Positions 4,855 to 26,537 are shown, numbered from the stretch's first letter. The stretch is 64,000 bases of DNA from Alphaproteobacteria bacterium (GCA_965199175.1 OZ240684.1:1058337-1122336), one strand, 5' to 3'. The notes: generated by a model from the sequence alone, not told the origin. Program-made: numbers and translations.

Positions 4855-4933
<79 letters not shown>

Positions 4934-6916: not shown

Positions 6917-7087
6917 TGCCCATCCCCGGCATGCTGAATTTGAAAAAGATGGTTCCTCTGTTTGGGTCACGTCTGAAGTCGGTGCTATGGCCTGAGTGAT
7001 TGAGGCCGCAACCTAAAAAATGGTCAGGAAAATTTGTTTCGAAATTCCCGGTATAAAAATTCCCGGTATAAAACCAGAGTTAATCCA

Positions 7088-7366: not shown

Positions 7367-7459
7367 AAGATCGAATCACCCTGGCATAGTTGACGCCAGG
7401 AATGGCCCCCGGATATTCATTTTGGCAGCAGGATCCGGGAAAATCAAAAAGGGTGTGCT

Positions 7460-7590
7460 CAATCACTGTGCAGGCTTTAAATCATTGATACAGATCTATT
7501 ATTGACACAGATCTATTATTGTCACATAGCAACGTGAGTAAAGTGTCGTGATTTTTTGAACCCCTTGCGGCGACAATTTCCTATACTGAA
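7460..7590 (+). repeat. Copy A of a ~125-bp direct repeat flanking the hydrogenase island (with internal 17-bp duplication)
   Basis: caatcactgtgcaggctttaaatcattgatacagatctatt...tgtcacatagcaacg...attttttgaa...cttgcggcgacaatt..cc.tac..gaa is ~85% identical to 25076-25190. Confidence 0.8.
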
Positions 7591-7855
7591 CTCACTTCCA
7601 GCAGTCAATTTTCTAAGCTTCAATGTCTGCCCCGAACCGATCTTGAGCAGGCTGTTTGGTCAATGGGATATGGACCCCGACTCATTGGGGTCAAAATCGA
7701 AATCGCGCCGGACTCTATTTAACCGGGATATTTTCGGACGATGATAACTGTGGATGACAGATGAAAGAGTGATGGTCGATTCGTAAATTTTATTTGCATA
7801 TTGAAAAGAAACTTAGCAGGATTGAACAAGACGTGATGATTAAAAAAATCCGCAT

Positions 7856-9298
7856 GTGACAACACAGAAAACAATTCTCCTGATCTCTGATGATACGGAA
7901 TTTGTAGAGGTCGCGCGTACGGCTTTCTCTCATACCGGCGATTACCGGCTTGTCCTCTGCGCAAACCGACATGCCGCGGCCAATCGTCTTGAGCAGATTG
8001 AGGCGCATCTTCTGATCGCGGATTACGATGTGGAGGATGGCCAGGGCGGCGAGGCACTTTGCGAGGCCAGAATCTCCCATCCTCAAATTCCAAGAATGCT
8101 CATCGCGAGGACAGAAATCGCGGTTACAGATTCAGATATTGTCCGCAGATGTGCTGCTTATTTGTTTTTGTTCAAGCCGGTTATGCCGACACAGTTGGAT
8201 ATTTCGGTTAAACGCGCATTGGAACTGAGCGAATTGTCACGTCGACACCGGTTGTTATCGCGTGAACTCAGAATTTCGATCGATGACGATATATTCGGTG
8301 ATGAGCACAAGATGTCGGTCAAAGGCGGCGTGTCGCAATTTGAGAAACTTGTGTTTGCCAGTCCAAAGATGGCTGAACTGGTTGAAGATGCAAGGCGGGC
8401 CGCTAAAACCGAGTTACCGGTATTGATTCATGGTGAAACAGGGACTGGAAAAGAATTGTTGGCGCGGGCGATACATTACAATTCGCAACGAATGGATTCA
8501 CCGCTTCTGGTTCAAAATTGCGGGGGGATGAGCGATGAAACTCTGCATTCTGAACTTTTTGGCCATCTGCGTGGCGCATTCACCGGAGCTGTTGCGGATC
8601 GTCTGGGTCTCTTTCGGGCCGCCGAAGGCGGGACTGTTTTTTTAGATGAAATCTCAGAAGTATCATCGAATTTTCAGGTCAGCTTGTTGAGGTTTCTCCA
8701 GGAAGGCGAAGTCAAACCTTTGGGATCGGACAAGGTGTCATACTCCAATGTTCGGATTGTCGCAGCATCCAATCGTTCACTGGAAGCAATGGTCGAATCT
8801 GGTGGCTTTCGACGAGATCTTTACTATCGGCTTAAAGGGTTTACCCTCTTAATTCCGCCGCTGCGGGAACGTCCGGAAGACATATCGGTCCTTGCTGAGT
8901 TTTTCCTTGAAAAATACGCAGGGGTTGTTGGTCGCCAGGTCATGGGTATTACGAAAGCTGCATTGGACGCGCTGGCTGCCTATAGATATCCGGGAAATGT
9001 CCGGGAGCTTGAAACAGAACTACAGAGAATGATCGCCGTTGCAGATCAAGGTGGATATATCTCGGAACGCCATTTGTCGCCTTCCATCCGACAAGCGGCA
9101 GCTGCCGGACACACCAATGGACCTCAAGCAATCGAAGGGGCCAATTTGAAAGAAATGGTAGAGAATCTAGAGCGTCAGGTGGTCAGGCAAACGCTGGAAA
9201 AAACACGATGGAATCAAAGCCAGGCGGCTCACATGCTCGGACTTTCCCGGGCTGGTTTGGCCAATAAAATCAAACGCTATAATCTTCAGGCGGAATAG
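7856..9298 (+). CDS. Sigma-54-dependent response regulator (NtrC family; HoxA/HupR-like hydrogenase activator)
   Basis: GTG start. Receiver domain, AAA+ sigma54-interaction domain (GETGTGKE, GAFTGA), and C-terminal Fis-type HTH. Confidence 0.85.
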   Translation: MTTQKTILLISDDTEFVEVARTAFSHTGDYRLVLCANRHAAANRLEQIEAHLLIADYDVEDGQGGEALCEARISHPQIPRMLIARTEIAVTDSDIVRRCAAYLFLFKPVMPTQLDISVKRALELSELSRRHRLLSRELRISIDDDIFGDEHKMSVKGGVSQFEKLVFASPKMAELVEDARRAAKTELPVLIHGETGTGKELLARAIHYNSQRMDSPLLVQNCGGMSDETLHSELFGHLRGAFTGAVADRLGLFRAAEGGTVFLDEISEVSSNFQVSLLRFLQEGEVKPLGSDKVSYSNVRIVAASNRSLEAMVESGGFRRDLYYRLKGFTLLIPPLRERPEDISVLAEFFLEKYAGVVGRQVMGITKAALDALAAYRYPGNVRELETELQRMIAVADQGGYISERHLSPSIRQAAAAGHTNGPQAIEGANLKEMVENLERQVVRQTLEKTRWNQSQAAHMLGLSRAGLANKIKRYNLQAE

Positions 9299-9308
9299 GT
9301 CGTTTCGG

Positions 9309-9542
9309 ATGTCTGAAAATGATGGGACCAAATGCTCCGGGAATATTGTGGGGTTTCCACAGTCACGCACCCGGATTGGACCTTTGCGTCCAGCAAAAGA
9401 CCTTGGTTTATCAAGGTTGTCGCGCCAAGTTGGGTCACATGGAAAAGCCGCTCAAGGTCATTGGTGCAGTCACTGCGAAGGCATTTGGTACAGCTATTTC
9501 CCGGAGTCCGAATGTCCCGTTTGTGGCAACCGGCATGGGTGA
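9309..9542 (+). CDS. Small hypothetical zinc-ribbon protein (C-terminal CxxC...CPxCG, rubredoxin-like)
   Basis: 77-aa ORF with WCSHC...CPVCGN. Three overlapping frames are open here, so coding status is uncertain. Confidence 0.3.
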   Translation: MSENDGTKCSGNIVGFPQSRTRIGPLRPAKDLGLSRLSRQVGSHGKAAQGHWCSHCEGIWYSYFPESECPVCGNRHG

Positions 9543-9672
9543 TCGAAACCTGCTCATTAACTTTACATCTGTAAAGTAAGTTGCATTGCTGTGTTGGGTA
9601 GGGAGGCTGAATTTTAGTGCCTGAATCTCATCAACTTGTTGATATTATGTATAAAAATTTTTGGACTAAAAC

Positions 9673-9689
9673 TGGCATTGTTTTTGCTT
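9673..9689 (+). promoter_or_regulatory. Sigma-54 (-24/-12) promoter upstream of hydrogenase small subunit
   Basis: TGGCATtgtttTTGCTT has GG and GC separated by exactly 10 nt and lies ~140 bp upstream of the hupS start. Two 16-bp direct repeats (aagttagcagacagaa) sit between it and the RBS. Confidence 0.6.
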
Positions 9690-9829
9690 AATATCGTGCT
9701 GTGGATCATACGGTGATTGATAATCCGTTCGAACAAGCAGATGAAAACCAAAACAAAGTTAGCAGACAGAACAAAAAAGTTAGCAGACAGAAAAAGAGAT
9801 AGAGACAGAAAAACGAAGGAGGAAAAAGA

Positions 9830-10792
9830 ATGGCTAATTTATTATGGCTCCAGGGCGGGGCCTGCTCTGGAAACACAATGTCGTTTCTGAATGCCGAGGA
9901 ACCCAGTGCCTGCGATCTTGTCACCGATTTCGGGATCAATGTTCTTTGGCAGCCGTCACTCGGCCTGGAACTCGGAGACGATGTTAAAGCGATACTGCAA
10001 AAATGTATTTCCGGTGATATCCAGCTGGATATTTTCGTTTTTGAAGGGACGGTTATTGACGCCCCCAACGGGACCGGCGAATGGAACCGGTTTTGTGGTC
10101 GGGCAATGAAAGAATGGGTCAAAGAACTTTCAGCAGCGGCTCAATTTGTTGTTGCTATTGGAGACTGTGCTACTTGGGGCGGTATTCCGGCAACCGCGCC
10201 CAATCCTTCGGATTCCAGGGGTCTGCAATTCCTGAAACGCGAGAAAGGTGGTGCCCTTGGGGAAGGGTTCACATCCAAAGCCGGCCTTCCGGTCATCAAT
10301 ATTCCGGGCTGCCCGGCTCACCCCGATTGGGTCACCCAAATTCTGGTGGCGGTTGCGACCGGACGGGCCGGAGACCTGACCCTTGATGAATTCCAGAGGC
10401 CAAAGACATTTTTCTCAAGTTTCACGCAAACTGGTTGTACTCGAAACATGCATTTTGCTTATAAAGTCTCCTCGACAGCGTTTGGCCAGCGTAAAGGCTG
10501 CCTGTTCTATGACCTTGGTTGCCGTGGGCCGATGACTCATAGCCCATGCAACCGGATTCTCTGGAACCGTCAGTCATCGAAAACTCGCGCCGGTATGCCT
10601 TGTCTGGGTTGCACGGAACCTGAGTTCCCGTTTTTTGATTTAGCACCTGGCACAGTCTTTAAAACTCAGACTGTGATGGGCGTACCCAAAGATCTGCCGA
10701 CAGGCGTGGAAAAAACTGGCTATGTAAAATTGACTGCCGCAGCCAAGGGTGCTGCCCCAGCCTGGGCTGAAAAAGACATTTTCGTCGTCTGA
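9830..10792 (+). CDS. hupS: [NiFe]-hydrogenase small subunit, no Tat signal peptide (group 2a-like HupS)
   Basis: Begins directly MANLLWLQGGACSGN. It has the conserved Cys ligands of the proximal, medial and distal FeS clusters. At 320 aa it matches cyanobacterial-type HupS length. RBS GGAGGAAAAAGA precedes the ATG. Confidence 0.9.
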   Translation: MANLLWLQGGACSGNTMSFLNAEEPSACDLVTDFGINVLWQPSLGLELGDDVKAILQKCISGDIQLDIFVFEGTVIDAPNGTGEWNRFCGRAMKEWVKELSAAAQFVVAIGDCATWGGIPATAPNPSDSRGLQFLKREKGGALGEGFTSKAGLPVINIPGCPAHPDWVTQILVAVATGRAGDLTLDEFQRPKTFFSSFTQTGCTRNMHFAYKVSSTAFGQRKGCLFYDLGCRGPMTHSPCNRILWNRQSSKTRAGMPCLGCTEPEFPFFDLAPGTVFKTQTVMGVPKDLPTGVEKTGYVKLTAAAKGAAPAWAEKDIFVV

Positions 10793-10841
10793 AGTCAGTG
10801 AACAAACAAAAGTCAGTGAACAAATAAAGGGAATTTAAACA

Positions 10842-12437
10842 ATGTCAGCAGCAGTTCAAACTCTTGATATTTCTCCTGTCGGGCGCGTTGAAGGCGACCT
10901 TGACGTTCGTGTCGATATTTCGGATGGCGTTGTAACCAATGCCTGGACAAATGCGGAAATGTTCCGCGGCTTTGAAGTCATCTTGAAAGACAAAGACCCC
11001 CAGGCTGGCCTGGTCGTCACGCCCCGCGCCTGTGGCATCTGTGGTGCGTCGCATCTGACATGTGCTGCCTGGGCGTTGGATACAGCCTGGAGCACGACTG
11101 TCCCAAGAAATGCCATTTTGGCCCGCAACCTTGGTCAGATTGTCGAATCGCTTCAGTCTTTGCCCAGGCATCATTACGGCTTGTTCATGATTGATTACAC
11201 GAACAAAAATTACGCCAATTCGGTTTTTTTCGAAGAAGCCGTCAAGCGCTATGCGCCGTTTACCGGTACTTCCTACGAAGCTGGCGTGACGATTTCCGGC
11301 AGACCGGTTGAGATTTATGCTCTGCTCGGTGGGCAGTGGCCGCACTCATCTTACATGGTGCCAGGTGGCGTGATGTGTGCGCCGACTTTGACGGATGTGA
11401 CCCGGGCCTGGTCGATCCTTGAACACTTTCGACGTAACTGGATTGAACCATTATGGCTTGGATGTTCGATGGAGCGGTATGAAAGCATTCAGACATTAGA
11501 AGATTTTGAGGCATGGCTTGATGAACGTCCGGAACATGCGCGTTCAGACCTCGGCCTTTATTGGCGAATGTCCAAAGATATCGGTCTGGATCAATACGGC
11601 AAAGGCCATGGCAAATTCATCACCTGGGGTTATCTGCCCCATGAGGACAAATATCAAAACCCAACCATTGATGCACGCAGCGGCGCGGTCATCATGAAGG
11701 CCGGGGTATATGATGGTGCTTCTGACAGCTTCCAACCGATGGAACAGTCGTTGGCCCGGGAAGATATGATCCATTCCTGGTACGATGAAGGCAATGATAT
11801 TCACCCTTTTGACCGCACAACCAATCCGATTATGAAGAATGAGATTGATCCGGATGGAAAATATTCCTGGTGCACTTCGGTTCGCCACACTGAAAACGGT
11901 CGCCTTGAGGCGGGTCCACTTGCGCGTCGCCTGGTTTCTGGAGGACCGGGTCAGGATTTCCAGCATTCGGACGGCCTGATCCTGGATATGTATCGGAAGA
12001 TGGGTGGTGCTTCGATTATGCTGCGCCATTTCGCACGGATGCATGAACTGTGTATTCTCTACCGCGAAGCTGAGCGTATTCTGCGTGAATTCAAGCTCAA
12101 TGACGAATGGTATATCAAACCAACCGAGAAAGATGGGCGTGGTTGGGGTGCTACGGAGGCAATTCGTGGTGCCCTCTGCCACTGGATTGATGTTGAAGGC
12201 GGTAAGATCAAGAACTATCAGATCATCGCGCCGACCACCTGGAATGTTGGTCCTCGCGCTGAGAACGGCGAACGGGGACCGATCGAAGAGGCACTCATTG
12301 GGACGCCGATTGCCAACTCTTCGGATCCGGTCGAAGTCGGCCATGTGTGTCGGTCCTATGACAGCTGTTTGGTCTGCACCGTCCATGCTCATGATGGCAA
12401 GACAGGCGAAGAGCTTGCGCGGTTTCGTACGGCGTAA
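10842..12437 (+). CDS. hupL: [NiFe]-hydrogenase large subunit with C-terminal extension
   Basis: N-terminal RACGICGASH and C-terminal DSCLVCTVH motifs ligate the Ni-Fe site. About 16 residues follow the final His, which is a substrate for endopeptidase cleavage. 531 aa. Confidence 0.9.
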   Translation: MSAAVQTLDISPVGRVEGDLDVRVDISDGVVTNAWTNAEMFRGFEVILKDKDPQAGLVVTPRACGICGASHLTCAAWALDTAWSTTVPRNAILARNLGQIVESLQSLPRHHYGLFMIDYTNKNYANSVFFEEAVKRYAPFTGTSYEAGVTISGRPVEIYALLGGQWPHSSYMVPGGVMCAPTLTDVTRAWSILEHFRRNWIEPLWLGCSMERYESIQTLEDFEAWLDERPEHARSDLGLYWRMSKDIGLDQYGKGHGKFITWGYLPHEDKYQNPTIDARSGAVIMKAGVYDGASDSFQPMEQSLAREDMIHSWYDEGNDIHPFDRTTNPIMKNEIDPDGKYSWCTSVRHTENGRLEAGPLARRLVSGGPGQDFQHSDGLILDMYRKMGGASIMLRHFARMHELCILYREAERILREFKLNDEWYIKPTEKDGRGWGATEAIRGALCHWIDVEGGKIKNYQIIAPTTWNVGPRAENGERGPIEEALIGTPIANSSDPVEVGHVCRSYDSCLVCTVHAHDGKTGEELARFRTA

Positions 12438-12507
12438 CCAATAAGGGTATGGAGAGTTCCAAACAAAATCCTGATAAAAAATCCGTAGAAACAAAATTGG
12501 GTTAGGT

Positions 12508-12897
12508 GTGGTGGCTTCGATGGTTGGTGATATTTCTGTTGCGGCGGAGTCTTCGGCTTATCGGCAACGTTACGGGGTTTTGCCTTCCGAGGCCGACCAC
12601 GCAACCCTCATGAAGATGATTGAGGATTTATTTAAGGAGGGTCTGGAGACTCAGATTGAGCCATTTCCGAAAACTGACCGGGAATTTGCGGCGATTCTTG
12701 ATGATCTGCGGATGCTTACGCCAGACCAGCTTCGGGAAAAACTGGTGCTTTCCGGATGGCTTCTCAAGCCCCATGGTGAAGATCAGATGCGTTGTCAGGA
12801 ATGCATGTATTTTCTTGTCCATCGTCGCTGGTGCGATCTTCCGGAGTTGAATTTGCCTGCGGAACCGGAATGGTGGTGCAGATTGTGGAGAATTTAG
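12508..12897 (+). CDS. Hypothetical protein, paralog 1, conserved C-terminal 4-Cys motif (hydrogenase-cluster associated)
   Basis: C-terminus QECMYFLVHRRWCDLPELNLPAEPEWWCRLWRI. Paralogous to the next gene. Confidence 0.5.
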   Translation: MVASMVGDISVAAESSAYRQRYGVLPSEADHATLMKMIEDLFKEGLETQIEPFPKTDREFAAILDDLRMLTPDQLREKLVLSGWLLKPHGEDQMRCQECMYFLVHRRWCDLPELNLPAEPEWWCRLWRI

Positions 12898-12907
12898 GAG
12901 AGAGGAA

Positions 12908-13240
12908 GTGTCTGACCAAGCGTCAAGTCCTGAAGACGATGCGTTGCGCGACCATATCGCGGAGACATTGTCTTCGGGGATAGAAACCGAAGTCTGGCCA
13001 CGCGCCGAAACTTCGGAGATGGTTGAGAATATTGTCAAGCGCTTACAAACCGAAGCCAGAGACGACCTGGACAAGAAGCTGATCATCGGCGGTTTCACCG
13101 ACCACATCATCGAAGCCGAAGGATTGGAACAACCCTGTGAGACTTGTATGTATTACTTGGTGCATCGGAAATTTTGCGAATTACCGGAGTTGATGTTGCC
13201 AGTCGAACCGCATTGGTCTTGCAGACTTTGGCGCATTTGA
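12908..13240 (+). CDS. Hypothetical protein, paralog 2, conserved C-terminal 4-Cys motif
   Basis: C-terminus CETCMYYLVHRKFCELPELMLPVEPHWSCRLWRI aligns residue-for-residue with the previous ORF. GTG start. Confidence 0.5.
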   Translation: MSDQASSPEDDALRDHIAETLSSGIETEVWPRAETSEMVENIVKRLQTEARDDLDKKLIIGGFTDHIIEAEGLEQPCETCMYYLVHRKFCELPELMLPVEPHWSCRLWRI

Positions 13241-13716
13241 ATCCGGCGACAGTCATCATCGGTTGCGGCAACCCGAACCGAAGCGATGATGGAGTCGGCC
13301 CCTATGTCGTTTCCTTGCTTCGTGATCGGGATCTTGGTGATCATGTCTCGCTTTATGATGGCGGGACCGATGGTATGGGTGTCATGTACCGGCTGCGGGG
13401 CTTTGAGCGTCTGGTCATCATTGACGCCCGCATGCCTCAGGGGACTCCGGGCGCATTATATGAAGTCCCCGGAGACGTTCTGGAAACGCGTCCGCCACAA
13501 AGTCTCAATCTTCATGATTTCAGATGGGATCATGCTCTTTATGTCGGCCGCCAAATATATGGCACGGCGTTTCCGGATGATGTATCGGTGTTTTTAATTG
13601 AAGCAGCCAATCTTGATCTGGGATTGGAGATCAGCCCACACATTCAGGCGACGGCCTTGAAAGTTGCAGCGCAGATTGAGCATATGGTGACCGCGCGTGA
13701 TGCGGCGGCTATTTAG
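13237..13716 (+). CDS. hupD: Hydrogenase maturation endopeptidase (HybD/HupD family)
   Basis: Motif VIIGCGNPNRSDDGVGPYVV matches the GxGNxxxxDDGxG signature. The proposed TTG start overlaps the upstream stop. An ATG at 13144 in the track would overlap the previous gene by ~100 nt. Confidence 0.75.
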   Translation: MNPATVIIGCGNPNRSDDGVGPYVVSLLRDRDLGDHVSLYDGGTDGMGVMYRLRGFERLVIIDARMPQGTPGALYEVPGDVLETRPPQSLNLHDFRWDHALYVGRQIYGTAFPDDVSVFLIEAANLDLGLEISPHIQATALKVAAQIEHMVTARDAAAI

Positions 13717-13719
13717 GGA

Positions 13720-14031
13720 GTGGCGATGGCGGTGCGTATTGGCGTCCGGGATGGGTCTGTGTATCTCAATCGGCAGACCGTTGAGACGTATTTCCGGCAT
13801 ATTGACGCTGTAATCATTTTGATCCGTGACCAACAGTTGCAGATTCTGCCGGTTCGGCAGATGGCTGCGGGGGGGTGTTTGCTAAAAGTCCGTAATGCGG
13901 TTGGGGACCGGGTGGCGAACAGCCCGGATGTCTTCGCCGAGCACGGGCTTTCGGCTTGGCGTGATGATGATATTGAGGCAGTTTGGTCGGCGACTCTCGG
14001 TGCTCTTGTTGCAGAGATATCCGCATACTAA
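13720..14031 (+). CDS. Hypothetical protein (hydrogenase cluster)
   Basis: 103-aa ORF. RBS GGGAG lies 6 nt upstream of the ATG, immediately after hupD. Confidence 0.35.
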   Translation: MAMAVRIGVRDGSVYLNRQTVETYFRHIDAVIILIRDQQLQILPVRQMAAGGCLLKVRNAVGDRVANSPDVFAEHGLSAWRDDDIEAVWSATLGALVAEISAY

Positions 14032-14132
14032 GTTTACATATTGAAAAACGACTAGACATAATTCGTATAAACGGGTTTACTTTCCTGAGCGTTCATTGTT
14101 AGCGGATCGAAATCCGTTTACGGGAGGAGAGT

Positions 14133-15122
14133 ATGGTCGCGCGCAGCCGTACCGAAGATGAGGTGAATGCGGCCTTAAAGACGGTCGAAGGAAGCGGCGC
14201 ATCGACGCAGGAAAAAGCCGAGATGCTTATGGAAATCGCCATGGGCCTCCAACAAAAGCCCAAAGCTCCGGGTGATCTTCATGCTGCGGTCACTCTCTAT
14301 AAAAGGAGTCTGGAGCAAGCCAGAGACGCAGATTCGCTGCTTCAGGCACGTATTCGTGCGCGCATGGCCACTGCTATGATGGCCATACCTGGCGATACGA
14401 CGCATTTTCTGGAAAGCGCCCGGGGCGAATTGCAGGACGCCCTGGAGATATTACAAACCGAAGGCCTTGATGCAGAAATCGCAGAAGCCGAAATGAATTT
14501 GGGCCTGGTCTTGCAAAACCTTGCAGAAGTTGGCCAGGGCCGCATTCAAGATGCCATATCGGCCTATCAACGTGCCTTAAGGGTCTTTGATAAAGCCAGT
14601 CATCCTGTAGAATTCGCCATTCTGCAAAATAACATCGCAACTGCTTTCCTTTCGATTCCTTTCACTCAGGAGAGTGGTAAGATGCGGGAGGCTCTGGCCG
14701 TGCAGGCATTTGAAGAGGGTTTGAAAGTGGTCAATCTGATTGACCACCCCCGTGAATACGCCATGTTACAGAATAATCTTGGCAACGCTCTTCAGTACGC
14801 TTCGTCAAGCCATCGGGTTGAAAATGGTTTTCGGGCACTGGAGGCTTATGACGAAGCCTTGAAAGTGAGAACATCCCGCGATATGCCGGATGAATATGCC
14901 AACACCATCGCCAATAAGGCAAATTGCCTGGTCAACCTACCTGATGACCCAGAAAACCCTGACACCGGCAATCAGCATCACTTGTCAATAGCCCAGACTC
15001 TCTACAAGGAAGCGCATACGATTTTCGAGAATACCGGAGCACTCGACAAAGCGGCAATGGTGGCCGAAGCCCTGGCGAACCTATCTTCCGAAACCCGTTT
15101 CGGCCAACCCATCGTTCATTGA
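14133..15122 (+). CDS. TPR-like repeat protein (hydrogenase cluster)
   Basis: 329 aa, helical, with repeated A/L/Y-rich ~34-aa units (ALxxYxxAL patterns). Confidence 0.55.
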   Translation: MVARSRTEDEVNAALKTVEGSGASTQEKAEMLMEIAMGLQQKPKAPGDLHAAVTLYKRSLEQARDADSLLQARIRARMATAMMAIPGDTTHFLESARGELQDALEILQTEGLDAEIAEAEMNLGLVLQNLAEVGQGRIQDAISAYQRALRVFDKASHPVEFAILQNNIATAFLSIPFTQESGKMREALAVQAFEEGLKVVNLIDHPREYAMLQNNLGNALQYASSSHRVENGFRALEAYDEALKVRTSRDMPDEYANTIANKANCLVNLPDDPENPDTGNQHHLSIAQTLYKEAHTIFENTGALDKAAMVAEALANLSSETRFGQPIVH

Positions 15123-15346
15123 AGAAAAAAGCCACAGAAGGAGACCTGGCAATGGAACCTCTCATATTCATCCTGGCATTGGTGCTCGGGGTTGCTGCAT
15201 CTATCGGTGCCGGCGTGTTATCGGGTCTTTGGATCGGCAAAGACGCTCTTGGCGGCGAACTTGCCGCCTTTATGGGCGGGCTTTACGGCCTCATGTCCGG
15301 CATCGTCGGCGTCAGCGCCGGTTTGGCCGCTCTATTACTGGTTTAA
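15119..15346 (+). CDS. Small membrane protein (2 predicted TM helices)
   Basis: 75 aa with Gly/Ala-rich hydrophobic segments. Overlaps the upstream stop. Confidence 0.4.
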   Translation: MKKKATEGDLAMEPLIFILALVLGVAASIGAGVLSGLWIGKDALGGELAAFMGGLYGLMSGIVGVSAGLAALLLV

Positions 15347-15357
15347 GGGGGAGTCGG

Positions 15358-15579
15358 ATGTTGAGTATAGCACTGAATTCAGCAAAATTGTTCTTCGCGG
15401 GAAAACTCTTCCAGGATAACAAGAAAGTCTTGCGTCAATTTGCCATTGGTGCCGGGGCTGGGGGAATTGCGACTGTTATCGTTGCTCAATTCACGCCGCT
15501 GTGGCTCGCCGCGATGGCTGGCGGTGCTGTTTGCGGCTTTCTTCAACCAATTTTGTTTAAAGATCTGAAATACGCGTGA
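15358..15579 (+). CDS. Small membrane protein (2 predicted TM helices)
   Basis: ATG follows GGGGGAG. 73 aa with two hydrophobic stretches. Confidence 0.4.
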   Translation: MLSIALNSAKLFFAGKLFQDNKKVLRQFAIGAGAGGIATVIVAQFTPLWLAAMAGGAVCGFLQPILFKDLKYA

Positions 15580-15583
15580 TCCG

Positions 15584-16459: not shown

Positions 16460-17640
16460 AGGCAATGATGCTCTCCTCCTTCCAGCCGCTCAAGGCACCA
16501 GGAACTGTGAAAGCAGGCCGATTATTGCTGGATGAAGGCGGACCGGAAGTCATCCTTGGCTGGCGGCAGGGGGAATTGGCGGCTCCTCTTACACCAAGTC
16601 CCTCGACTATGTTCGGACCGCGGGGAGTATGCCTGCACCCTGATGGCTCATTTTGGGCTTCTGATACCGGACATCATCGCCTTCTGGGATGGCACACAAC
16701 ACCCTATCATGATAATGCGGCAGCCGATATCGTCATCGGCCAGCCGGATTTCCTGAGAGAAGGGCGCAATGCCAAGGCAGAGCCCAGTGCCGCAACACTG
16801 AACATGCCGACCGGCGTGGCGGCCTGGGGCAATGGTCTGGCGGTTGCCGATGCTTGGAATCACCGGATTTTGTTGTGGAAAACAACTCCCCGGCAAAGCG
16901 GTCAGGCCGCCGATATCATTTTGGGACAGGAGACCAATATTTCAATCGACGCCAACCGGGGTGCCGACCAACCGACCAAAGCCAGCCTGCACTGGCCTTG
17001 CGGGGTCTCGGTCATTGATGGAAAATTGGTTGTTTGCGACACCGGAAACCGTCGGGTTCTGATCTGGGATCATCCCAAAAAAACCGGGCAACCGGCTGAT
17101 TTGGTTCTGGGTCAATATGATTTTACGACCCGGGACGAGAATGCCGGTGGTCCTGTTTCGGCAATGTCTATGCGGTGGCCACATATGGCCACCTCCTGGT
17201 CTGGGCGTTTTGTTGTAGCTGATGCGGGCAATAACCGAATCATGGTCTGGAACCACATGCCCAGTCACAACGGTGCGTCATCAACATTCATTCTTGGCCA
17301 ACATGATGCGGTTGGATGCGACCATAATCTTGCTGATTATTATCCATGTGCGGCCTCGGTCAACATGCCTTATGCGGCTATCGCCGCAGGGCAAAGGCTG
17401 GTGGTCGCCGATACGGCGAATTCGCGGTTGATTGGATGGTCCAGGGCGGTCACAGGAAGTGATGCTGACCGGCTGACCGGTCAACCGGATTTTGCGGCCA
17501 AAGGGGATAATCGTTGGGGTATGGCGGAACGCGATAGCCTATGCTGGCCTTATGGCCTCTCGGTATTGGACGATTGGATTGCAATCGCAGATAGCGGGAA
17601 CAACCGCGTGCTTTTGTGGCGGGTCGCCGATGCCGGGTGA
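16456..17640 (+). CDS. NHL-repeat beta-propeller protein (hydrogenase-associated)
   Basis: The ATG overlaps the upstream stop (ATGA). At least six repeats of the DxGNxRIxxW/D type (ADAWNHRILLW, CDTGNRRVLIWD, ADAGNNRIMVWN, ADTANSRLIGW, ADSGNNRVLLW). Confidence 0.7.
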   Translation: MKAMMLSSFQPLKAPGTVKAGRLLLDEGGPEVILGWRQGELAAPLTPSPSTMFGPRGVCLHPDGSFWASDTGHHRLLGWHTTPYHDNAAADIVIGQPDFLREGRNAKAEPSAATLNMPTGVAAWGNGLAVADAWNHRILLWKTTPRQSGQAADIILGQETNISIDANRGADQPTKASLHWPCGVSVIDGKLVVCDTGNRRVLIWDHPKKTGQPADLVLGQYDFTTRDENAGGPVSAMSMRWPHMATSWSGRFVVADAGNNRIMVWNHMPSHNGASSTFILGQHDAVGCDHNLADYYPCAASVNMPYAAIAAGQRLVVADTANSRLIGWSRAVTGSDADRLTGQPDFAAKGDNRWGMAERDSLCWPYGLSVLDDWIAIADSGNNRVLLWRVADAG

Positions 17641-19996
17641 ACGTCATAAAATCCGTGGCCAGGTTCAAGGGGTCGGGTTTCGGCCAACCGTTTGGCGGGT
17701 TGCGCGTGAACTTGGCTTAACCGGCAATGTTCGCAATACCGGTGACAGCGTGGAGGTGCTTCTATGGGGAAAAAACAGCGATAGTTTCGTCGATCAATTA
17801 CGCCTCCAACTCCCGCCTCTGGCCAAAATCGATGACTGGGAGCGTGCACCTGTGAGCGGACCAGCACCCGAAACCTTCTCGATTGAGGCATCTTTGTCCG
17901 ATCATGTAAAAACTTCCGTGACCCCGGATACCAATATATGCGCCGACTGCCTGGCAGAGATCCGTGACCCCTTTGAAAGACGCTACCGCTATCCATTCGC
18001 GAATTGCACCAATTGCGGACCACGATTTTCAATCATTGAGAGTGTTCCTTACGACCGGGACGGGACAACCATGCGGTCATTTGACCTTTGTCCCGATTGC
18101 GCGGTTGAATACCGGGACCCGGCTGATCGGCGATTTCACGCTCAACCGGTCGCTTGCCATGCTTGCGGACCGCGCGCCTGGTTGGAAAAACTTGGTGGCG
18201 GTACCGTCAATTCCGAATCTTTTTCGATGATGGATGATGTTGATGCTGCAGGTGGTGCATTGATGCGCGGATTCATCCTCGCCATCAAAGGTATTGGCGG
18301 ATTTCATCTGGCCTGTGACGCCACCAAGCCAGACGTCGTGAATGCTTTAAGAGAGCGCAAGAATCGAAAGGGCAAAGCGTTTGCGCTGATGGCCCGTGAT
18401 CTCGATGTTATCAGTCAATATGCGGCGGTATCAGATGAGGAAGCAGCCCTCCTGAGAGGACCCGAAGCACCGATTGTTCTTCTAAGGGCCCAGGGTAAAC
18501 CATTACCTGAGGCGATCGCGCCGGGCCTTGATCGACTCGGCTTTATGCTGCCTCACACGCCTCTGCATCATTTGCTGCTGAGCCGGATGAAACGCCCGGT
18601 AGTCATGACCTCGGGAAACCTGTCCGGACAACCGCAATGCACCCGGAATACCGATGCTCGTAGGCGTTTGACAGGAATCGCTGACTTCGCACTCATGCAT
18701 AACCGCACCATCGCAAACCGCATTGATGATAGTGTGGTTCGGGTCGATATGGGGCGAATGCGGATGTTACGGCGGGCTCGGGGTTATACACCCAAGGCAA
18801 TCCCTCTGCCCAAAGGCTTTTCCCAAAACCATAAGATTTTAGCTCTTGGTGCCGAACTCAAAAACGCTTTCAGCCTTGTCAAAGAGGGTCAGGCAATCCT
18901 CAGCCAACATATGGGAGATATGGAAGACTTCTCCACCCAGGCCGATATCGACCACACTCTTGCTCTCTATCAATCCTTGTATCGGTTTTCGCCGGATCTG
19001 ATCGCCGTTGACAGCCATCCGGAATATCTTTCGACCAAGCGCGGCTACGCAATGGCCCGGGACTTGCCCATCATTGAGGTACAGCATCATCATGCTCATA
19101 TCGCCAGCTGCCTGGTTGAAAATGGCTACGCCCTCAATGCACCGCCGGTATTGGGAATCGCTTTAGATGGTCTTGGTTTGGGTGATGATGGAACCTTTTG
19201 GGGCGGCGAATTTCTGATCGCTGATTACCAGGGGTACCAACGCGCTGGCTGTTTGAAACCGGTCGCTCTGCCAGGGGGCGATTCGGCTGTGCGCGAACCT
19301 TGGCGGAATGCCTATGCGCATCTGATGGCCGAAATGGGCTGGGCGGAATTTGAAATGAATTTTTCCGATCTCGAACTGTATCATAAGCTCAACGCCACAC
19401 CGCGCAAAACTCTTGATGCGATGATATTGTCGAATACCAATGCGCCGCTATCATCATCCTGTGGCCGCCTGTTCGATGCTGCGGCTACGATGATCGGTAT
19501 TGCCTGGGAGCGCCAAGACTATGAAGGCCAGGCAGCCATGCAGTTTGAAGCCATCCTGGATGTTGATGCGCTCAATGAACCTGATGACCATGCCTATCCA
19601 TTCGCGATCCCGCTGTTGGGTGGTGCCGGCCTGCCCTATATTGAGCCGCTGGCAGTATGGCGGGCAATGCTGGGTGATTTAATTTTGGGGACACCCGTCG
19701 GCGTTATGTCGGCCCGGTTTCATCGCGGTCTTGCCAAAGCCATTGCGGCAATGACAAACCGGATCACGTCGAAAACTGAAATTGATACAGTCGTCCTCAC
19801 CGGCGGTTGTTTCCAGAATGCCACTTTGTTCAGGCTGGTGAGCACATATTTAAAAGATATAGGCTTGACGCTTTTCAGCCATTCGAAAATCCCCGCCAAT
19901 GATGGGGGACTTGCTCTCGGCCAGGCCGCAATCGCTTTGGCCCTCAACTCAAAAGGAGACAACCATGTGCCTCGGGATACCCGGACAGATCATTGA
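17630..19996 (+). CDS. hypF: Carbamoyltransferase HypF
   Basis: Acylphosphatase N-terminus (VQGVGFRP), two Zn-finger CxxC pairs, YrdC and Kae1-like domains. Internal start at 17630; the ORF track extends to 17492. Confidence 0.9.
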   Translation: MPGERHKIRGQVQGVGFRPTVWRVARELGLTGNVRNTGDSVEVLLWGKNSDSFVDQLRLQLPPLAKIDDWERAPVSGPAPETFSIEASLSDHVKTSVTPDTNICADCLAEIRDPFERRYRYPFANCTNCGPRFSIIESVPYDRDGTTMRSFDLCPDCAVEYRDPADRRFHAQPVACHACGPRAWLEKLGGGTVNSESFSMMDDVDAAGGALMRGFILAIKGIGGFHLACDATKPDVVNALRERKNRKGKAFALMARDLDVISQYAAVSDEEAALLRGPEAPIVLLRAQGKPLPEAIAPGLDRLGFMLPHTPLHHLLLSRMKRPVVMTSGNLSGQPQCTRNTDARRRLTGIADFALMHNRTIANRIDDSVVRVDMGRMRMLRRARGYTPKAIPLPKGFSQNHKILALGAELKNAFSLVKEGQAILSQHMGDMEDFSTQADIDHTLALYQSLYRFSPDLIAVDSHPEYLSTKRGYAMARDLPIIEVQHHHAHIASCLVENGYALNAPPVLGIALDGLGLGDDGTFWGGEFLIADYQGYQRAGCLKPVALPGGDSAVREPWRNAYAHLMAEMGWAEFEMNFSDLELYHKLNATPRKTLDAMILSNTNAPLSSSCGRLFDAAATMIGIAWERQDYEGQAAMQFEAILDVDALNEPDDHAYPFAIPLLGGAGLPYIEPLAVWRAMLGDLILGTPVGVMSARFHRGLAKAIAAMTNRITSKTEIDTVVLTGGCFQNATLFRLVSTYLKDIGLTLFSHSKIPANDGGLALGQAAIALALNSKGDNHVPRDTRTDH

Positions 19997-20258
19997 AATC
20001 TCTGATCCAGCCAAGAAACTCGCGCTGGTGGACGTATCTGGCGTTCGCCGTGAAGTGAATGTTGCCTGCATCGCCGAAAATAATCCGATTGACGACCTGA
20101 TTGGTGCCTGGGCGTTGATCCATGTCGGGTTTGCGATGTCTCGCATCAATGAGGAGGAAGCCGCCAAGACTCTGGAAGTCCTCAGGATGCTGGGCGAAGC
20201 GCAAGAAGAAATCGAAGCGATGCGCCAAAGCCAGCAGATGCTGGAGCAGACATCATGA
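19965..20258 (+). CDS. hypC: Hydrogenase maturation factor HypC
   Basis: N-terminal MCLGIPGQI signature; 97 aa. Confidence 0.85.
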   Translation: MCLGIPGQIIEISDPAKKLALVDVSGVRREVNVACIAENNPIDDLIGAWALIHVGFAMSRINEEEAAKTLEVLRMLGEAQEEIEAMRQSQQMLEQTS

Positions 20259-21394
20259 AATATGCCGACGAGTTCCGTGATCCCGTTGCGGCCAGAGGCG
20301 TCCTGGCAGCCATCGAAAACGTTGTCACCGAGCTGGGTGCAACAGCCGAGAAACCGATCCATATTATGGAGATTTGCGGCGGCCACACCCATGCAATCTT
20401 CCGTTATGGACTCGATAAACTGACGCCGCCGGGGCTGGAATTCATTCATGGTCCTGGATGCCCGGTTTGCGTACTTCCGATGCGTCGGGTCGATGAATGC
20501 GTCGAACTGGCTGAGCAGCATCAGGTCATTTTTACAACATTCGGTGACGCGATGCGGGTTCCGGGAACTCGAAAATCACTGATGCAAGCCAAGGCGGAGG
20601 GATGTGACATCCGCATGGTCTACTCGCCTCTGGATGCCCTTGAATTGGCCCGCCGCCATCGGGACCGGGAAGTCGTTTTCTTTGGTCTTGGGTTTGAGAC
20701 AACCACTCCATCAACCGCATTATCAATCCAGCAAGCGGCTTGTGAAAAGCTGGAGAATTTCACAATCTTCTGCAACCATGTGACGGTTCCACCGCCAATT
20801 AAGGCTTTGTTGGATGACCCACATATGATCCTCGACGGGTTTGTCGGTCCGGGCCATGTATCAATGGTGATCGGTGTCAGACCGTATGATTTTATTGCCC
20901 AGGAATACGGTAAACCGATTGTCGTAGCCGGGTTTGAGCCGCTGGATTTGTTGCAGTCAGTCTTGATGGTTTTAGAACAAATCCGTGATGGACGGGCTGA
21001 GGTCGAAAATCAATATTCCAGAGTGGTTCCAGATGAGGGCAACCCGGTCTCTGTCGCTGCTTGCGAAGATGTTTATGAACGTCGTGAAAGTTTTGAATGG
21101 CGGGGTTTGGGAGAGATTGACTTCTCTGGCCTGAAAATTCGCAAAAAATATGCGGCTTTTGACGCTGAGCGAAAATTCGCTATCGGCTATGGAACCAATC
21201 GCCAACCGACCAGGGAACCCGAAGGGTGCGCTTGCGGCGACGTGATGACGGGCCGGATTAAACCTCGGCAATGCCCACAGTTTGGCGGCGGCTGTACGCC
21301 GGAAACGCCTTTGGGTGCATTGATGGTTTCATCTGAAGGGGCGTGTGCGGCCTATTACCAATATGGTGGTGCTCAATTGGAAACCACGCAATGA
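20255..21394 (+). CDS. hypD: Hydrogenase maturation factor HypD
   Basis: Motifs CGGHTH, GPGCPVC and FETT; 379 aa. Confidence 0.9.
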   Translation: MKYADEFRDPVAARGVLAAIENVVTELGATAEKPIHIMEICGGHTHAIFRYGLDKLTPPGLEFIHGPGCPVCVLPMRRVDECVELAEQHQVIFTTFGDAMRVPGTRKSLMQAKAEGCDIRMVYSPLDALELARRHRDREVVFFGLGFETTTPSTALSIQQAACEKLENFTIFCNHVTVPPPIKALLDDPHMILDGFVGPGHVSMVIGVRPYDFIAQEYGKPIVVAGFEPLDLLQSVLMVLEQIRDGRAEVENQYSRVVPDEGNPVSVAACEDVYERRESFEWRGLGEIDFSGLKIRKKYAAFDAERKFAIGYGTNRQPTREPEGCACGDVMTGRIKPRQCPQFGGGCTPETPLGALMVSSEGACAAYYQYGGAQLETTQ

Positions 21395-22434
21395 CAACGC
21401 TTGCGCCATCGCGACGGCTCCGGGCCGATACGGTGACACTGGCTCACGGCGGTGGCGGTAAGGCAATGCGGGATCTTATCACGGATGTCTTCCTGTCTGT
21501 CTTCACGCCCACTGATCTGGAGGATCAAGCCCGCCTGCAATCAGATGCCCTGACCGAAACCGGAACCCAGCTGGCGTTCACGACCGATGGATTCGTTGTC
21601 GACCCCATTGAATTTCCGGGTGGAGATATCGGCAGAATTGCCGTCTGCGGAACAGTTAATGATCTGGCTGTCGGCGGTGCCCGTCCCCTCTGGCTGTCGG
21701 CCGGCTTTATTATTGAGGAGGGATGCGACGTCGCCTTGCTGCGCCGCATTGCCCACTCAATGCAGACGGCGGCGACAGAAGCAGATGTACGTATTGTCAC
21801 AGGTGACACCAAGGTGGTCGGAAAAGGATCGGCGGATGGCGTTTTCGTAACCACCTCCGGCATTGGCGTTATTTCTCCGGGTCGGTCTCTGAGTGCCGCC
21901 AATATACGGCCAGGGGATATCGCCATCGTCAATGGCGTTCTCGGTGATCATGGTGCTGCTATTCTGGCCGCACGCGGTGACATGGCTCTGTCTGCGACAA
22001 TCAAAAGCGATTGCCAACCACTGGCCGCGCTCATGAATGCGGTGCTTGAAGCCGCTCCCGGGGTCCGCGCAGCCAGAGATGCTACACGAGGCGGACTTGC
22101 TTCGGCGTTGAACGAAATTGCCGAGGCGGCAGGCTACGGCATAGAAATCGACGAAACTGATTTGCCTTTGAGGACTGAAGTTAAAGGGGTTTGCGAAATT
22201 CTTGGGTTGGATCCACTTTATCTGGCTAATGAGGGGACTCTAGTTCTATTCGTTCCGCCTGAACAAGAAGATGCCGCACTGGCTGCAATGCACAGTCTAC
22301 CGGCTGGTCGGCACGCTGTCTCTATTGGACACGTCGTTCAGTCCCATCCCGGTGTCGTTGTTATGCGTACAACATTTGGAAGTGCGCGTATCATTGACAT
22401 GCTGGTCGGTGAGCAACTGCCTAGAATCTGCTGA
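21391..22434 (+). CDS. hypE: Carbamoyl dehydratase HypE
   Basis: AIR-synthase-like fold. The ATG overlaps the hypD stop. Confidence 0.9.
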   Translation: MTTLAPSRRLRADTVTLAHGGGGKAMRDLITDVFLSVFTPTDLEDQARLQSDALTETGTQLAFTTDGFVVDPIEFPGGDIGRIAVCGTVNDLAVGGARPLWLSAGFIIEEGCDVALLRRIAHSMQTAATEADVRIVTGDTKVVGKGSADGVFVTTSGIGVISPGRSLSAANIRPGDIAIVNGVLGDHGAAILAARGDMALSATIKSDCQPLAALMNAVLEAAPGVRAARDATRGGLASALNEIAEAAGYGIEIDETDLPLRTEVKGVCEILGLDPLYLANEGTLVLFVPPEQEDAALAAMHSLPAGRHAVSIGHVVQSHPGVVVMRTTFGSARIIDMLVGEQLPRIC

Positions 22435-22441
22435 GATATAT

Positions 22442-23158
22442 ATGATTAGCTTTCTGTTTCTCGGATTTCTCATTGGTATGAGCCATGCAGTTGAGGCTGA
22501 TCACCTGGCCGCAATTGGGGCTTTGGCTGCTCGTGAAGCTGGCGGGAGACGATCCCTGGTCTTGAGGGGTGTTGCTTGGGGGATGGGTCATACAATCACC
22601 CTGTTTGCTTTGTGTTTTCTGGTTCTGATCTTCGGAATCGCCATCACCGACGAAGCAGCAGCAGCACTGGAATTCGGGGTTGGAGTCATGTTGGTGCTTC
22701 TGGGGTCTGATGTATTGTGGCGGATATATAAAAGACGTATTCATTTCCATCCGCACACCCATGATGGTGGTCAGCTGCATTTGCATGCGCATTCTCACCC
22801 TAAAACCGATACTCCTCATGAGGTTGATCACCACCACCATACCCATTCCGGTTTTTCACTTAAGGCCATGATGGTTGGCCTCATGCATGGAGCAGCTGGC
22901 GCGGCAGCACTTCTCGCGCTCGCTGTCGCCACCGCCAAAGATCCACTGGTCGCGCTGGCCTATACACTTGTCTTCGGGGTGGGATCCATCATTGGTATGG
23001 CACTGTTATCATTCGTTGCTGCGTGGCCGCTTCAAAGTGTCGAAGGACACGCCCATTTCATCTATCGGTTCTTGATAGCACTGGCTGGATGTGCCGCCAT
23101 TTTTATTGGCATTGATAGTATGTTCAATACCGGTGCGCTTGCATGGAGAGTGTTCTGA
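22442..23158 (+). CDS. Nickel transporter-like membrane protein (HupE/UreJ-NicO superfamily) with His-rich loop
   Basis: Multiple TM helices; the HAVEADH motif; loop HFHPHTHDGGQLHLHAHSHPKTDTPHEVDHHHHTHSGF. Confidence 0.65.
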   Translation: MISFLFLGFLIGMSHAVEADHLAAIGALAAREAGGRRSLVLRGVAWGMGHTITLFALCFLVLIFGIAITDEAAAALEFGVGVMLVLLGSDVLWRIYKRRIHFHPHTHDGGQLHLHAHSHPKTDTPHEVDHHHHTHSGFSLKAMMVGLMHGAAGAAALLALAVATAKDPLVALAYTLVFGVGSIIGMALLSFVAAWPLQSVEGHAHFIYRFLIALAGCAAIFIGIDSMFNTGALAWRVF

Positions 23159-23400
23159 TGCATGAACTTGGCCTCAGCAGAAATATTGTCGCCATCGTTT
23201 CGGAGCATGCGGCAGGTCGGCGGGTCAAACGCGTACGGATCGCCATTGGTCCGCTTGCATGCGTTGAACGCGCTGCCTTGGCGTTTTGCTGGCGTTTAGT
23301 CGTGGAAGGAACCGATCTTGCCATCGCCGAATTGGTCTTCATTGAAGCCGAAGGCGATACTTTTCTGATTAAAGACTACGAACTGGAGGAGGCAGCTTGA
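23158..23400 (+). CDS. hypA: HypA-like nickel metallochaperone, N-terminal domain only (zinc-finger module absent)
   Basis: Starts with the MHE Ni-binding motif (MHELGLS). At 80 aa it ends before the expected CxxC...CxxC motifs, and hypB starts immediately after. Confidence 0.6.
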   Translation: MHELGLSRNIVAIVSEHAAGRRVKRVRIAIGPLACVERAALAFCWRLVVEGTDLAIAELVFIEAEGDTFLIKDYELEEAA

Positions 23401-24215
23401 TGTGCGGAACATGCGGATGTTCAGATCCTAAGAATGACGTAGCTTTAATTGATCCTGAAACCGGAGAGAAAATGATTATGCGCCAGGGCAGTATTCTTGG
23501 ACAGGATCATCCGTCTCACAGCCATGGCGGTGATGATCCTCCGCATATCCATGGCCCGGACGGTGAGACTGTCAGTCTTGAGACAGCTGTGCTCGCTAAA
23601 AATGAAGCCATTGCGGCGCGTAATCGCGATTGGTTCGAGAGTAATAGCGTATTGGCGTTGAATCTTGTCAGTTCGCCGGGAGCCGGAAAAACAACCCTTC
23701 TTGAACGCACAATCAGGGAATTAAACCCTACTGTTGAGATTGCCGTGATCGAAGGTGATCAAATGACGACAAACGACGCCTATCGTATCCGGGCCGCCGG
23801 AGCCAAGGCAATCCAGATCAATACCGGGGCCGGATGTCATCTCGAAGCGGATATGATTGCGCAAGCGGTTACCCGTCTTGATCTTGCTCCCGGGGCTATT
23901 TTGATGATTGAAAATGTCGGGAATCTGGTTTGTCCAGCGATGTTTGATCTTGGAGAACATATGAAGGTCGCTGTTGTTTCGACAACTGAGGGCGAAGATA
24001 AACCACTGAAATACCCCCATATGTTCCGCGTTTGTGATCTTGTTGTGATCAACAAGATTGACCTGGTGCCTCATGTCGATTTCGATGAGACGCTGTGTCG
24101 GGACAATATTGCAAAAGTCAATCCGCACTCAAAGATCATATCCTTATCAAGTAAATCCGGGCATGGTTTTACGGCATGGACAGATTGGCTGGGAAGACAA
24201 CAACGCCCAGATTAG
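23400..24215 (+). CDS. hypB: Hydrogenase nickel incorporation GTPase HypB
   Basis: N-terminal MCGTCGC high-affinity Ni site, His-rich stretch, P-loop GSPGAGKTT, and ENVGNLVCP. Confidence 0.9.
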   Translation: MCGTCGCSDPKNDVALIDPETGEKMIMRQGSILGQDHPSHSHGGDDPPHIHGPDGETVSLETAVLAKNEAIAARNRDWFESNSVLALNLVSSPGAGKTTLLERTIRELNPTVEIAVIEGDQMTTNDAYRIRAAGAKAIQINTGAGCHLEADMIAQAVTRLDLAPGAILMIENVGNLVCPAMFDLGEHMKVAVVSTTEGEDKPLKYPHMFRVCDLVVINKIDLVPHVDFDETLCRDNIAKVNPHSKIISLSSKSGHGFTAWTDWLGRQQRPD

Positions 24216-25075
24216 ATGATGGTCGGGTCATATTCGGGAAAATGGAACGCTCTCAACACTGTCTGATCGAGACAATATCTCGGACTTGCAGGCCCCGGTG
24301 TTACAACAGAATGCGCAGGGCGACCACAGCGTTAGGATCATGGGCTTGTATATCATCAAATTCCCGTCCAGGTGCCATCAATTCATCATCTGTCAAGTAA
24401 TGAGCCGTAAAGTCAGTTTTGCCTCACCGCAGAACCCGGCAGAGATTGGAGTCTGGATGCCGCAGCCCAAGAATCTCGGCGATGATAACGCCGCCAGTGC
24501 CCCGTTGGCCGCTCCGGGATGGATGATGGCGATCTTGCCATGCCCGTTGCGGATATCCTTGGCAGGAAGGTCATTGATCAGGTAGTCTCGGAAAGTCAGC
24601 ACCCGCACGGTACGTACTGGCCCGCATTGATGGCTTCCAGCACGGTGCGCAATCGGTTAGGAATATTGGTGCGAACATCTGTATGGTTGGGATCGTTGCC
24701 TATGATGCGCCAGTTTGAGCCTCAATAGTGATTGTGCGCGCTGCATATTGGGCGTCTTCGAGGGTCAGGACATCCAATAGGCCGGGCATCTGTTTGATGA
24801 CTGAGCCACCCCAGCACCGATGTATGATTCATGTTTTGGTTTGTTCGTGCATAGCTCCAGACCCAGCCTGCCACTATCCCGCAGGCAAGCCTTGCGCCTT
24901 TGGGTCGGTATCAAAGCGCAAGACACGTATTTGCGCGATTTTTATTCGGCATTTTCCAATTTCTCCCATGCGTTTGGGGTACCAATAATCCGCCATCAAC
25001 CTGACCGGGGAATATCCGGGACAGGCTGGGTGACATTGTTCACGTTGGAAATTGGAAGGATTAAAACTATGCGTT
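24216..25075. pseudogene. Degenerate region with frameshifted gene fragments on both strands
   Basis: Only short ORFs that overlap one another in several frames. The minus-strand reading is broken across frames (NIPNRLRTVLEAINAGQYV..., then GKIAIIHPGAANGALAA...). No RBS-anchored intact gene. Confidence 0.3.
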
Positions 25076-25190
25076 CAATCACTGTGCAGGCTTTAAATCA
25101 TTGATACAGATCTATTTTTGTCACATAGCAACGGGAGTAGCATGTCGCCATTTTTTGAATATCTTGCGGCGACAATTCCCCATACCTGAA
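25076..25190 (+). repeat. Copy B of the ~125-bp direct repeat flanking the hydrogenase island
   Basis: See copy A at 7460-7590. Confidence 0.8.
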
Positions 25191-25331
25191 GTATCATTGA
25201 CATTTCAGGGTAGAATAACCGGATATTTGTTGGGTTTTTTTCTATCATCCTGCTAAATAAGGCTCTCTTTTTGTTTTTATTGATCCTTCTTATCTTTATT
25301 GATCCTTTTTGATTTCTTGTTCTTTTTGATA

Positions 25332-26390: not shown

Positions 26391-26537
26391 TATTATTCTG
26401 TTATCGAATCGCGTACGAGACTCAACAACCGCACCATGATCTCTCATCAATAAAGTAAGGAGAAAATAAAGTAAGGAGAAAATCAGTCGCCTGTTTCTGT
26501 ATTCTGTTCCGACACACAGAAAAATGGGAGTCACTCA

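Follow-up and report, generated by a model that had tools for sequence, protein, structure and literature searches.

The closest described counterpart of the locus analysed here is the MIC island of Methanococcus maripaludis OS7 and KA1, a ~12-kb [NiFe]-hydrogenase island flanked by 221-bp direct repeats (Tsurumaru et al. 2018, PMC6181927). This island has no transposition or integration enzyme, and its excision as a circle and its re-integration were attributed to homologous recombination (PMC6181927). Its repeat is the 3' end of a host gene, the two copies are identical at 219 of 221 positions, and excision was observed experimentally (PMC6181927). Our locus lies in a 64,000-nt stretch of the chromosome of an Alphaproteobacteria bacterium (GCA_965199175.1, OZ240684.1:1058337-1122336; hereafter the window, numbered from its first nucleotide). 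Here, two direct repeats, copy A and copy B, stand on either side of a set of hydrogen-oxidation genes. We tentatively read these copies as relics of the homologous recombination by which a relocating hydrogenase cassette entered this site.

Like the MIC island, the window island has direct repeats of more than 100 bp on both sides of its cargo (133 and 117 nt) and no mobility enzymes. Unlike the MIC repeat, its repeat is non-coding, ~90% identical between copies, and absent from the empty site, the empty sites being those of ~80%-identical genomes. Two further differences are that copy A lies inward of the insertion's outer edge and that excision is only plausible here. A related hydrogenase island on contig ctg11115l, which contains a duplicated fliR 3' end, is closer to the MIC design than the window island. 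Integrase-driven islands and integrative and conjugative elements (ICEs) share with the window island a discrete cargo, an empty site in relatives, flanking direct repeats, and a nearby tRNA gene, and in TARA contigs the cassette is found linked to an integrase. Unlike in those elements, no recombinase gene was found within or next to the window island. Its repeat is also long and imperfect, is not derived from the tRNA, and is missing from the empty site. Moreover, the two copies are not at both outer ends, copy B being 27 nt from its junction and copy A ~2.4 kb inside. With the hup/hyp clusters on plasmids and islands of Alphaproteobacteria, the window cassette shares the hydrogenase type and a compact set of regulator, structural, and maturation genes. 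Unlike plasmid clusters, which sit on replicons with their own mobility functions, it is chromosomal, has no mobility genes, and has diverged as core genes have. Islands that lack a recombinase and have direct repeats on their flanks are a known kind, of which the window island is a further example; it has precedents and brings no new mechanism.

The core of copy A occupies 7459-7591 (+ strand, 133 nt), and the core of copy B occupies 25075-25191 (+ strand, 117 nt), 141 nt upstream of the argC ATG. Both are non-coding and lie in direct orientation on the same strand, with their starts 17,616 bp apart. Global alignment gave 104 matches, 12 mismatches, and 18 gap columns, corresponding to 89.7% identity over aligned bases; the initial annotation, which had recognized the pair, put the figure at ~85%. 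The gap columns consist of a 1-nt indel and a 17-nt tandem duplication in copy A. The extra unit, ATTGACACAGATCTATT (7501-7517, + strand), is present in copy A only and is among the 16 short intergenic tandem duplications of the window. The first 42 nt at the 5' end match perfectly. A weaker extension of 12 nt to the left (7447-7458 and 25063-25074) lowers the identity to 86.8% when included, and in the 60 nt flanking the copies on each side identity is at the random level, 28-33%. Within the window, both the 42-mer and the 3' block were found at exactly two places, and 100 shuffles yielded neither. The repeat pair is genuine, far beyond chance.

Copies were counted within the 64-kb window of a 2.07-Mb chromosome (2,069,867 bp). 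A repeat search and word scans tolerating up to three mismatches found no third, partial, or solo copy in the window. An inverted repeat, TGTCGCC-N18-GGCGACA, lies within the element and is broken in copy A. Read from the sequence, the element also contains a perfect match to the integration host factor (IHF) consensus, TATCAATGATTTA, on the minus strand. Its ends, TCAATCACTG... and ...ATACTGAA, are not mutually inverted. Neither copy has terminal inverted repeats or a target-site duplication, and no duplicated word abuts the copies.

The element was also sought outside the window. Exact-word scans of the GTDB species representatives, which do not include the host's species, returned no copy. 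In JGI metagenomes and IMG/VR, only bare 19-21-mers matched, none of which extended, indicating chance matches. There was no blastn match in plasmids or in 816 kb of related loci. The initial annotation had called for a search of relatives for further copies; the search was made, and a widespread repeat was not seen in those 816 kb.

The locus was compared with those of the two closest argC relatives, which are 84% and 82% identical in this gene. The corresponding loci are L001, from the 2.10-Mb circular metagenome-assembled genome OZ000551.1, and L002. In both, tRNA-Met is followed by 530-640 bp and then by argC, without the kinase, the hydrogenase genes, or the repeat. In the window, the left landmark of this ancestral spacer is tRNA-Met(CAT) (4857-4933, - strand), which is 100% identical to the tRNA of L001 and L002, and the right landmark is argC (25332-26390, + strand). 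A block of the ancestral spacer is retained at 4994-5071 (+ strand), with 75-82% identity to L001 9613-9690 and L002 9620-9673. Ancestral homology restarts 27 nt past the end of copy B, at 25219-25243 (+ strand), in a block upstream of argC that is 91% identical to L001 9785-9807 and marks the right junction. Therefore, the inserted DNA spans ~5072-25218, and the locus is an insertion of ~20 kb relative to the empty sites. About 140 nt separate it from tRNA-Met, on whose 5' side it lies, and not at the tRNA 3' end.

The inserted DNA includes both copies of the repeat. Left of copy A is a segment that we call X1 (5072-7446, + strand), which is absent from the empty sites; its left junction is uncertain, between 5072 and ~5118, and places copy A ~2.4 kb inside the insertion. 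The conserved hydrogenase cassette extends from the upstream region of hupR to 44 nt beyond the hypB stop (~7658-24259, + strand). Its homology with the sister cassettes starts 66 nt after the end of copy A, at 7658, and stops ~800 nt before the start of copy B. As this homology stops short of both copies, the conserved cassette does not include the repeat. X2 (24260-25062), ~800 nt of decayed or non-coding filler common to no relative, separates the cassette from copy B.

Two exact words of the ancestral L001 spacer were found around copy A. The 13-mer GCCAGGAATGGCC (7395-7407, + strand) is 52 nt to its left, and the 12-mer CCCCGAACCGAT (7630-7641, + strand) is 39 nt to its right, where it directly precedes the start of cassette homology. 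For the 420-nt region around copy A, ~0.004 and ~0.016 such matches, respectively, are expected by chance. These words indicate that copy A is embedded in spacer-like DNA.

These boundaries alter several points of the initial annotation. The genes for hydrogen oxidation do lie between the copies, with the content it listed, as family searches confirmed. It had taken the repeats for the borders of the island; they are near junctions, but the insertion covers ~5072-25218 and copy A is ~2.4 kb inside the left end. Of the decayed DNA it placed on both inner sides, the right stretch holds, whereas 6773-7459 falls outside the bracketed region, left of copy A. The empty site it anticipated, with argC next to the kinase region, was found twice in relatives, but in a reduced form: the kinase is missing too, leaving only tRNA-Met, spacer, and argC. 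Its suggestion that the insertion duplicated a target sequence had to be given up, the repeat being absent from both empty sites.

The cassette aligns end to end with those of two sister genomes at 79-82% nucleotide identity, at other loci there. In OZ000551.1 its neighbours are carD on one side and restriction-modification genes on the other, and the empty tRNA-Met/argC site of the same genome is ~620 kb away. On contig ctg11115l it is inside the flagellar cluster, between fliR and flhB. The three sister genomes thus carry the cassette at three different loci, the tRNA-Met/argC site being occupied in the window's genome alone. In TARA contigs (L004-L007), a 212-aa Phage_integrase and ICE-like genes (DUF932, DUF736, ParB, and ParA) are directly upstream of hupR, the integrase gene being 466 nt upstream. 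At L101 the cassette is followed by IS66, Transposase_20, and other transposase genes. Plasmid-borne HupL proteins with 83-87% identity occur in Octadecabacter sp. SW4, Roseovarius indicus, Sphingopyxis alaskensis RB2256 (28.5 kb), and Novosphingobium. The differing loci, the integrase and insertion-sequence (IS) neighbours, and the plasmid locations therefore indicate that the hydrogenase cassette is a discrete module that moves.

Core genes beside argC were used as a yardstick of divergence. Their nucleotide identity is 79.0% between the window and L001 and 81.2% between the window and L002, the same as that of the cassette, and per-gene protein identities agree with the nucleotide comparison. 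The cassette has therefore been relocated within the clade and does not look like a recent import from a distant donor; its divergence indicates that it is as old as the clade and moved within it. The description of the locus as a laterally acquired island thus stands as regards an insertion relative to two empty sites, but the core-like divergence points to a relocation within the clade.

The island on ctg11115l, an independent second instance, also has direct repeats. This 21.6-kb island is flanked by copies of the fliR 3' end of ~260-296 nt, with 73% identity (L003 8056-8315 and L010 14301-14593, both on the same contig). The right copy is frameshifted and is immediately upstream of flhB. 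An inner repeat pair of 254 nt with 81% identity (L003 9102-9348 and L010 ~11117-11370) stems from a gene with 33-nt tandem repeats for a 177-aa coiled-coil protein. No mobility genes were found in this island.

Our preferred reading, held with somewhat less than even confidence, is that copies A and B are non-coding relic crossover or junction repeats, left by a RecA-type insertion of the relocating cassette in which no recombinase took part. We favour it because of the junction geometry, the ctg11115l parallel, and the MIC-island precedent. Ancestry boundaries lie within 27-66 nt of the copies: X1 gives way to the cassette at copy A, and X2 gives way to the ancestral argC upstream region at copy B. 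Two random or unrelated elements would reach such a geometry with a probability of about 1e-5. On this reading, a resident copy of the element would have been present in the tRNA-Met/argC spacer, downstream of an older insertion consisting of the kinase and decayed genes. Incoming DNA, circular or transferred, would have brought the hupR-hypB cassette, the neighbouring X2, and a single homologous copy of the element. A single RecA-type crossover within the element (Campbell-type) would then have integrated the incoming DNA and produced the order X1, copy A, cassette, X2, copy B, argC. Crossover or heteroduplex formation would most likely have taken place in the 42-bp block of perfect identity. 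Outside this block, the ~10% divergence would stem from differences that the parental copies already had, from drift since then, or from both. A present-day function of the copies themselves is improbable, and their 42-bp identity could in principle allow a rare, precise homologous deletion of 17.6 kb.

Several observations weigh against this reading. No resident or donor copy of the element was found in the empty sites or in the other data searched. No flanking repeats were found around the OZ000551.1 island. A simple Campbell event would put the spacer 12-mer to the right of copy B, but it is seen to the right of copy A; the history was therefore more complex and took more than one step. In addition, a dispersed low-copy family is a possible fit to the number of copies, these having been counted in the 64-kb window only.

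Such a family would be an intergenic repeat specific to the lineage, with copies near the island by chance or acting as general rearrangement hot spots. Two copies in 64 kb are compatible with tens in 2 Mb, absence from relatives is expected of a young family, and the genome does harbour further small families of repeats, among them the G-rich hairpins at 43-46 kb. We nevertheless consider a dispersed family doubtful. Neither copy shows the terminal inverted repeats or target-site duplication of a transposed element, partial or solo copies are lacking in the window even at three mismatches, and unrelated insertions would hardly place both copies next to ancestry junctions. The spacer words around copy A bear on a second explanation, namely that one copy was made locally during an illegitimate, replication-based insertion in which template switching copied a nearby ~130-nt stretch of spacer to the other end of the incoming DNA. 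It would suit a copy A lying within spacer-like DNA, with ancestral words on either side, and no second source of the element is known. Short intergenic tandem duplications, rife here, likewise speak for slippage-prone replication. A single event would have produced identical copies, yet these now differ by 12 substitutions while 42 nt remain perfect, and the ancestral spacers of L001 and L002 lack the element. Template switching therefore seems to us quite unlikely.

The TARA integrase raises the question of whether the copies are attL and attR of a site-specific element, with its tyrosine or serine recombinase lost or acting in trans. Relatives do carry the Phage_integrase and ICE-like block upstream of hupR, the element matches the IHF consensus, and the decayed DNA beside copy B could hide a dead gene. 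However, Pfam scans of the major open reading frames (ORFs) and decayed fragments in 5072-25218 revealed no recombinase or transposase domain, and the TARA integrase had no tblastn match in the window. An att core would also be short and exact, unlike this repeat of 117-133 bp at 90% identity; the empty site, which corresponds to attB, lacks the repeat, and copy A is 2.4 kb inside the inserted DNA. We judge the att explanation improbable. Least credible, and in our view very unlikely, is the alternative offered by the initial annotation, that hupR and argC have the same cis-regulatory module, a promoter or operator, reused in front of each. Both copies do precede intact genes on the same strand, by 265 nt for hupR and 141 nt for argC, the 5' 42 nt are perfectly conserved, and an inverted repeat is present. 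The inverted repeat is broken in copy A, however, and neither the hupR upstream regions of about 80 related genomes nor the argC upstream regions of the two relatives contain the element. Between the start codon and the element, each gene instead retains conserved upstream DNA that is its own (~200 nt for hupR and ~110 nt for argC). Promoter-like matches did not exceed shuffled controls, with none common to both copies on the + strand, and no Rfam match or fold beyond that of shuffles was obtained.

Further identities of the element were tried and rejected. A structured RNA, riboswitch, or small RNA was discarded, as no Rfam match was obtained at E<=1 or at the gathering score. A stable fold was discarded as well: z-scores against shuffles ranged from +0.21 to -0.86, and the predicted structures differed between the copies. 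For a shared promoter or terminator, consensus scans did no better on the element than on shuffled sequence, and they gave no site common to both copies on the + strand. Sequence inspection gave no convincing match to an ArgR box or a sigma54 promoter. Without terminal inverted repeats or a target-site duplication, the element does not qualify as a miniature inverted-repeat transposable element or an IS derivative. The 17-nt units were not accepted as iterons, since 15-21-nt tandem duplications are common in intergenic DNA (16 in the window by Tandem Repeats Finder).

Relic crossover repeats at one site may be part of a wider behaviour. The 16.6-kb hupR-hypB module could be a recombinase-free "translocatable unit" in a clade of small-genome marine Alphaproteobacteria. 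It would loop out by RecA between flanking short direct repeats and then integrate again where another copy of the repeat is available, in the same chromosome or a sister one. We regard this as speculative and on balance unlikely. It would explain the three loci, the core-like divergence, and the finding of imperfect, unrelated direct repeats around two of the three insertions.

Within X1, an intact HAMP histidine kinase (5193-6776) is followed by the N-terminal remnant of a response regulator (~6776-6916) and a remnant of a YNCE-like beta-propeller (~7017-7365). The cassette begins with hupR (7856-9298), which encodes an NtrC/HupR-type sigma54 activator. It continues with the small and the large NiFe hydrogenase subunit (320 and 531 aa). 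Between the hydrogenase and hyp genes are a HycI-type protease and TPR, NifU-Rieske, and NHL proteins. The maturation block consists of hypF, hypC, hypD, hypE, a NicO-like permease gene, hypA, and hypB, which ends at 24215. Guanine-cytosine content is slightly higher in the cassette (0.50-0.56 vs 0.45-0.53). Each copy of the repeat has decayed DNA to its left and an intact gene to its right, hupR for copy A and argC for copy B. The cassette has a HupR/HoxA-type activator but lacks a HupUV-type sensor hydrogenase and a HupT/HoxJ kinase. The only kinase nearby is the membrane HAMP-type kinase, which sits in the non-conserved X1 and whose partner response regulator is decayed.

No origin for X2 emerged from the searches. 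It had no Pfam match at E<=1 and no blastn match in plasmids. A phmmer search against 1.84 billion representative proteins returned no credible homologue, the single match being low-complexity junk. X2 also matched nothing in the 816 kb of related loci, and tblastx found no match in the flanks of related islands, including the TARA integrase region.

A 10-mer, TGCCCCGAAC, has only two sites in the 64 kb on both strands. One (5076-5085) is just past the retained spacer block, and the other (7628-7637) is just before cassette homology, so both are near junctions. A related word, CCCCGAAC, occurs in L020 at 9701, 63 nt outside the left boundary of the cassette, and also in the empty spacer of L001 at 9729. 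Beside the island, between argC and a hexapeptide transferase gene, a 481-aa ORF without a family match (26538-27983) is present in L002 (80% identical) and absent from L001, a further presence/absence difference. ARAGORN called a 90-nt "tRNA-His(atg)" in the argC 3' end (26297-26386); the Rfam tRNA model disagrees, and the call is probably a false positive.

The far left of the window contains two ORFs of 762 and 398 aa without a family match. The left edge (1-904) duplicates 4089-4904, which comprises the 3' end of the 398-aa gene, a spacer, and the 3' half of tRNA-Met. The duplicates agree perfectly over 300 nt and at 85-99% over the rest, with 88% identity for the tRNA fragment (811-858). 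Tandem units of the gene pair, which has no match in Pfam, NCBIfam, or PHROG, are stacked against the tRNA-Met 3' end, and L001 has 2.5 such units at the same place. The units look like the product of serial insertion at the tRNA 3' end without a recognizable integrase.

Other repeats in the window are of different kinds. A family of G-rich hairpins, CTGGGGGACCCGTAGGGGGGGTACCCCCAG, occupies 43193-46297 in both orientations. It includes a tandem array of 3.8 units of 73 nt (46018-46293), 97% identical to one another, which is not CRISPR-like because its "spacers" are identical. Intergenic tandem duplications of 15-21 nt in 2-4 copies were found at 7042-7073, 9750-9813, 10792-10828, and 26449-26483. 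Further sites of tandem duplication are 30662-30706, 61257-61336, 62268-62335, and 62438-62509. The spacers of L001 and L002 show the same habit, and these duplications may be a lineage-specific signature of slippage or duplication.

The main value of this locus lies in the comparison of three sister genomes, in which one metabolic module is found at three loci. Three sister lineages of marine Alphaproteobacteria, uncultured and probably host-associated, each show a changed position for a complete H2-oxidation module with its regulator, enzyme, and maturation genes. Long, imperfect direct repeats, without mobility genes, accompany at least two of these insertions. If these repeats are crossover scars, H2 use can be gained, moved, or lost by ordinary homologous recombination. 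If true, this would bear on the strain-level presence or absence of hydrogenases in symbiont and ocean metagenomes.

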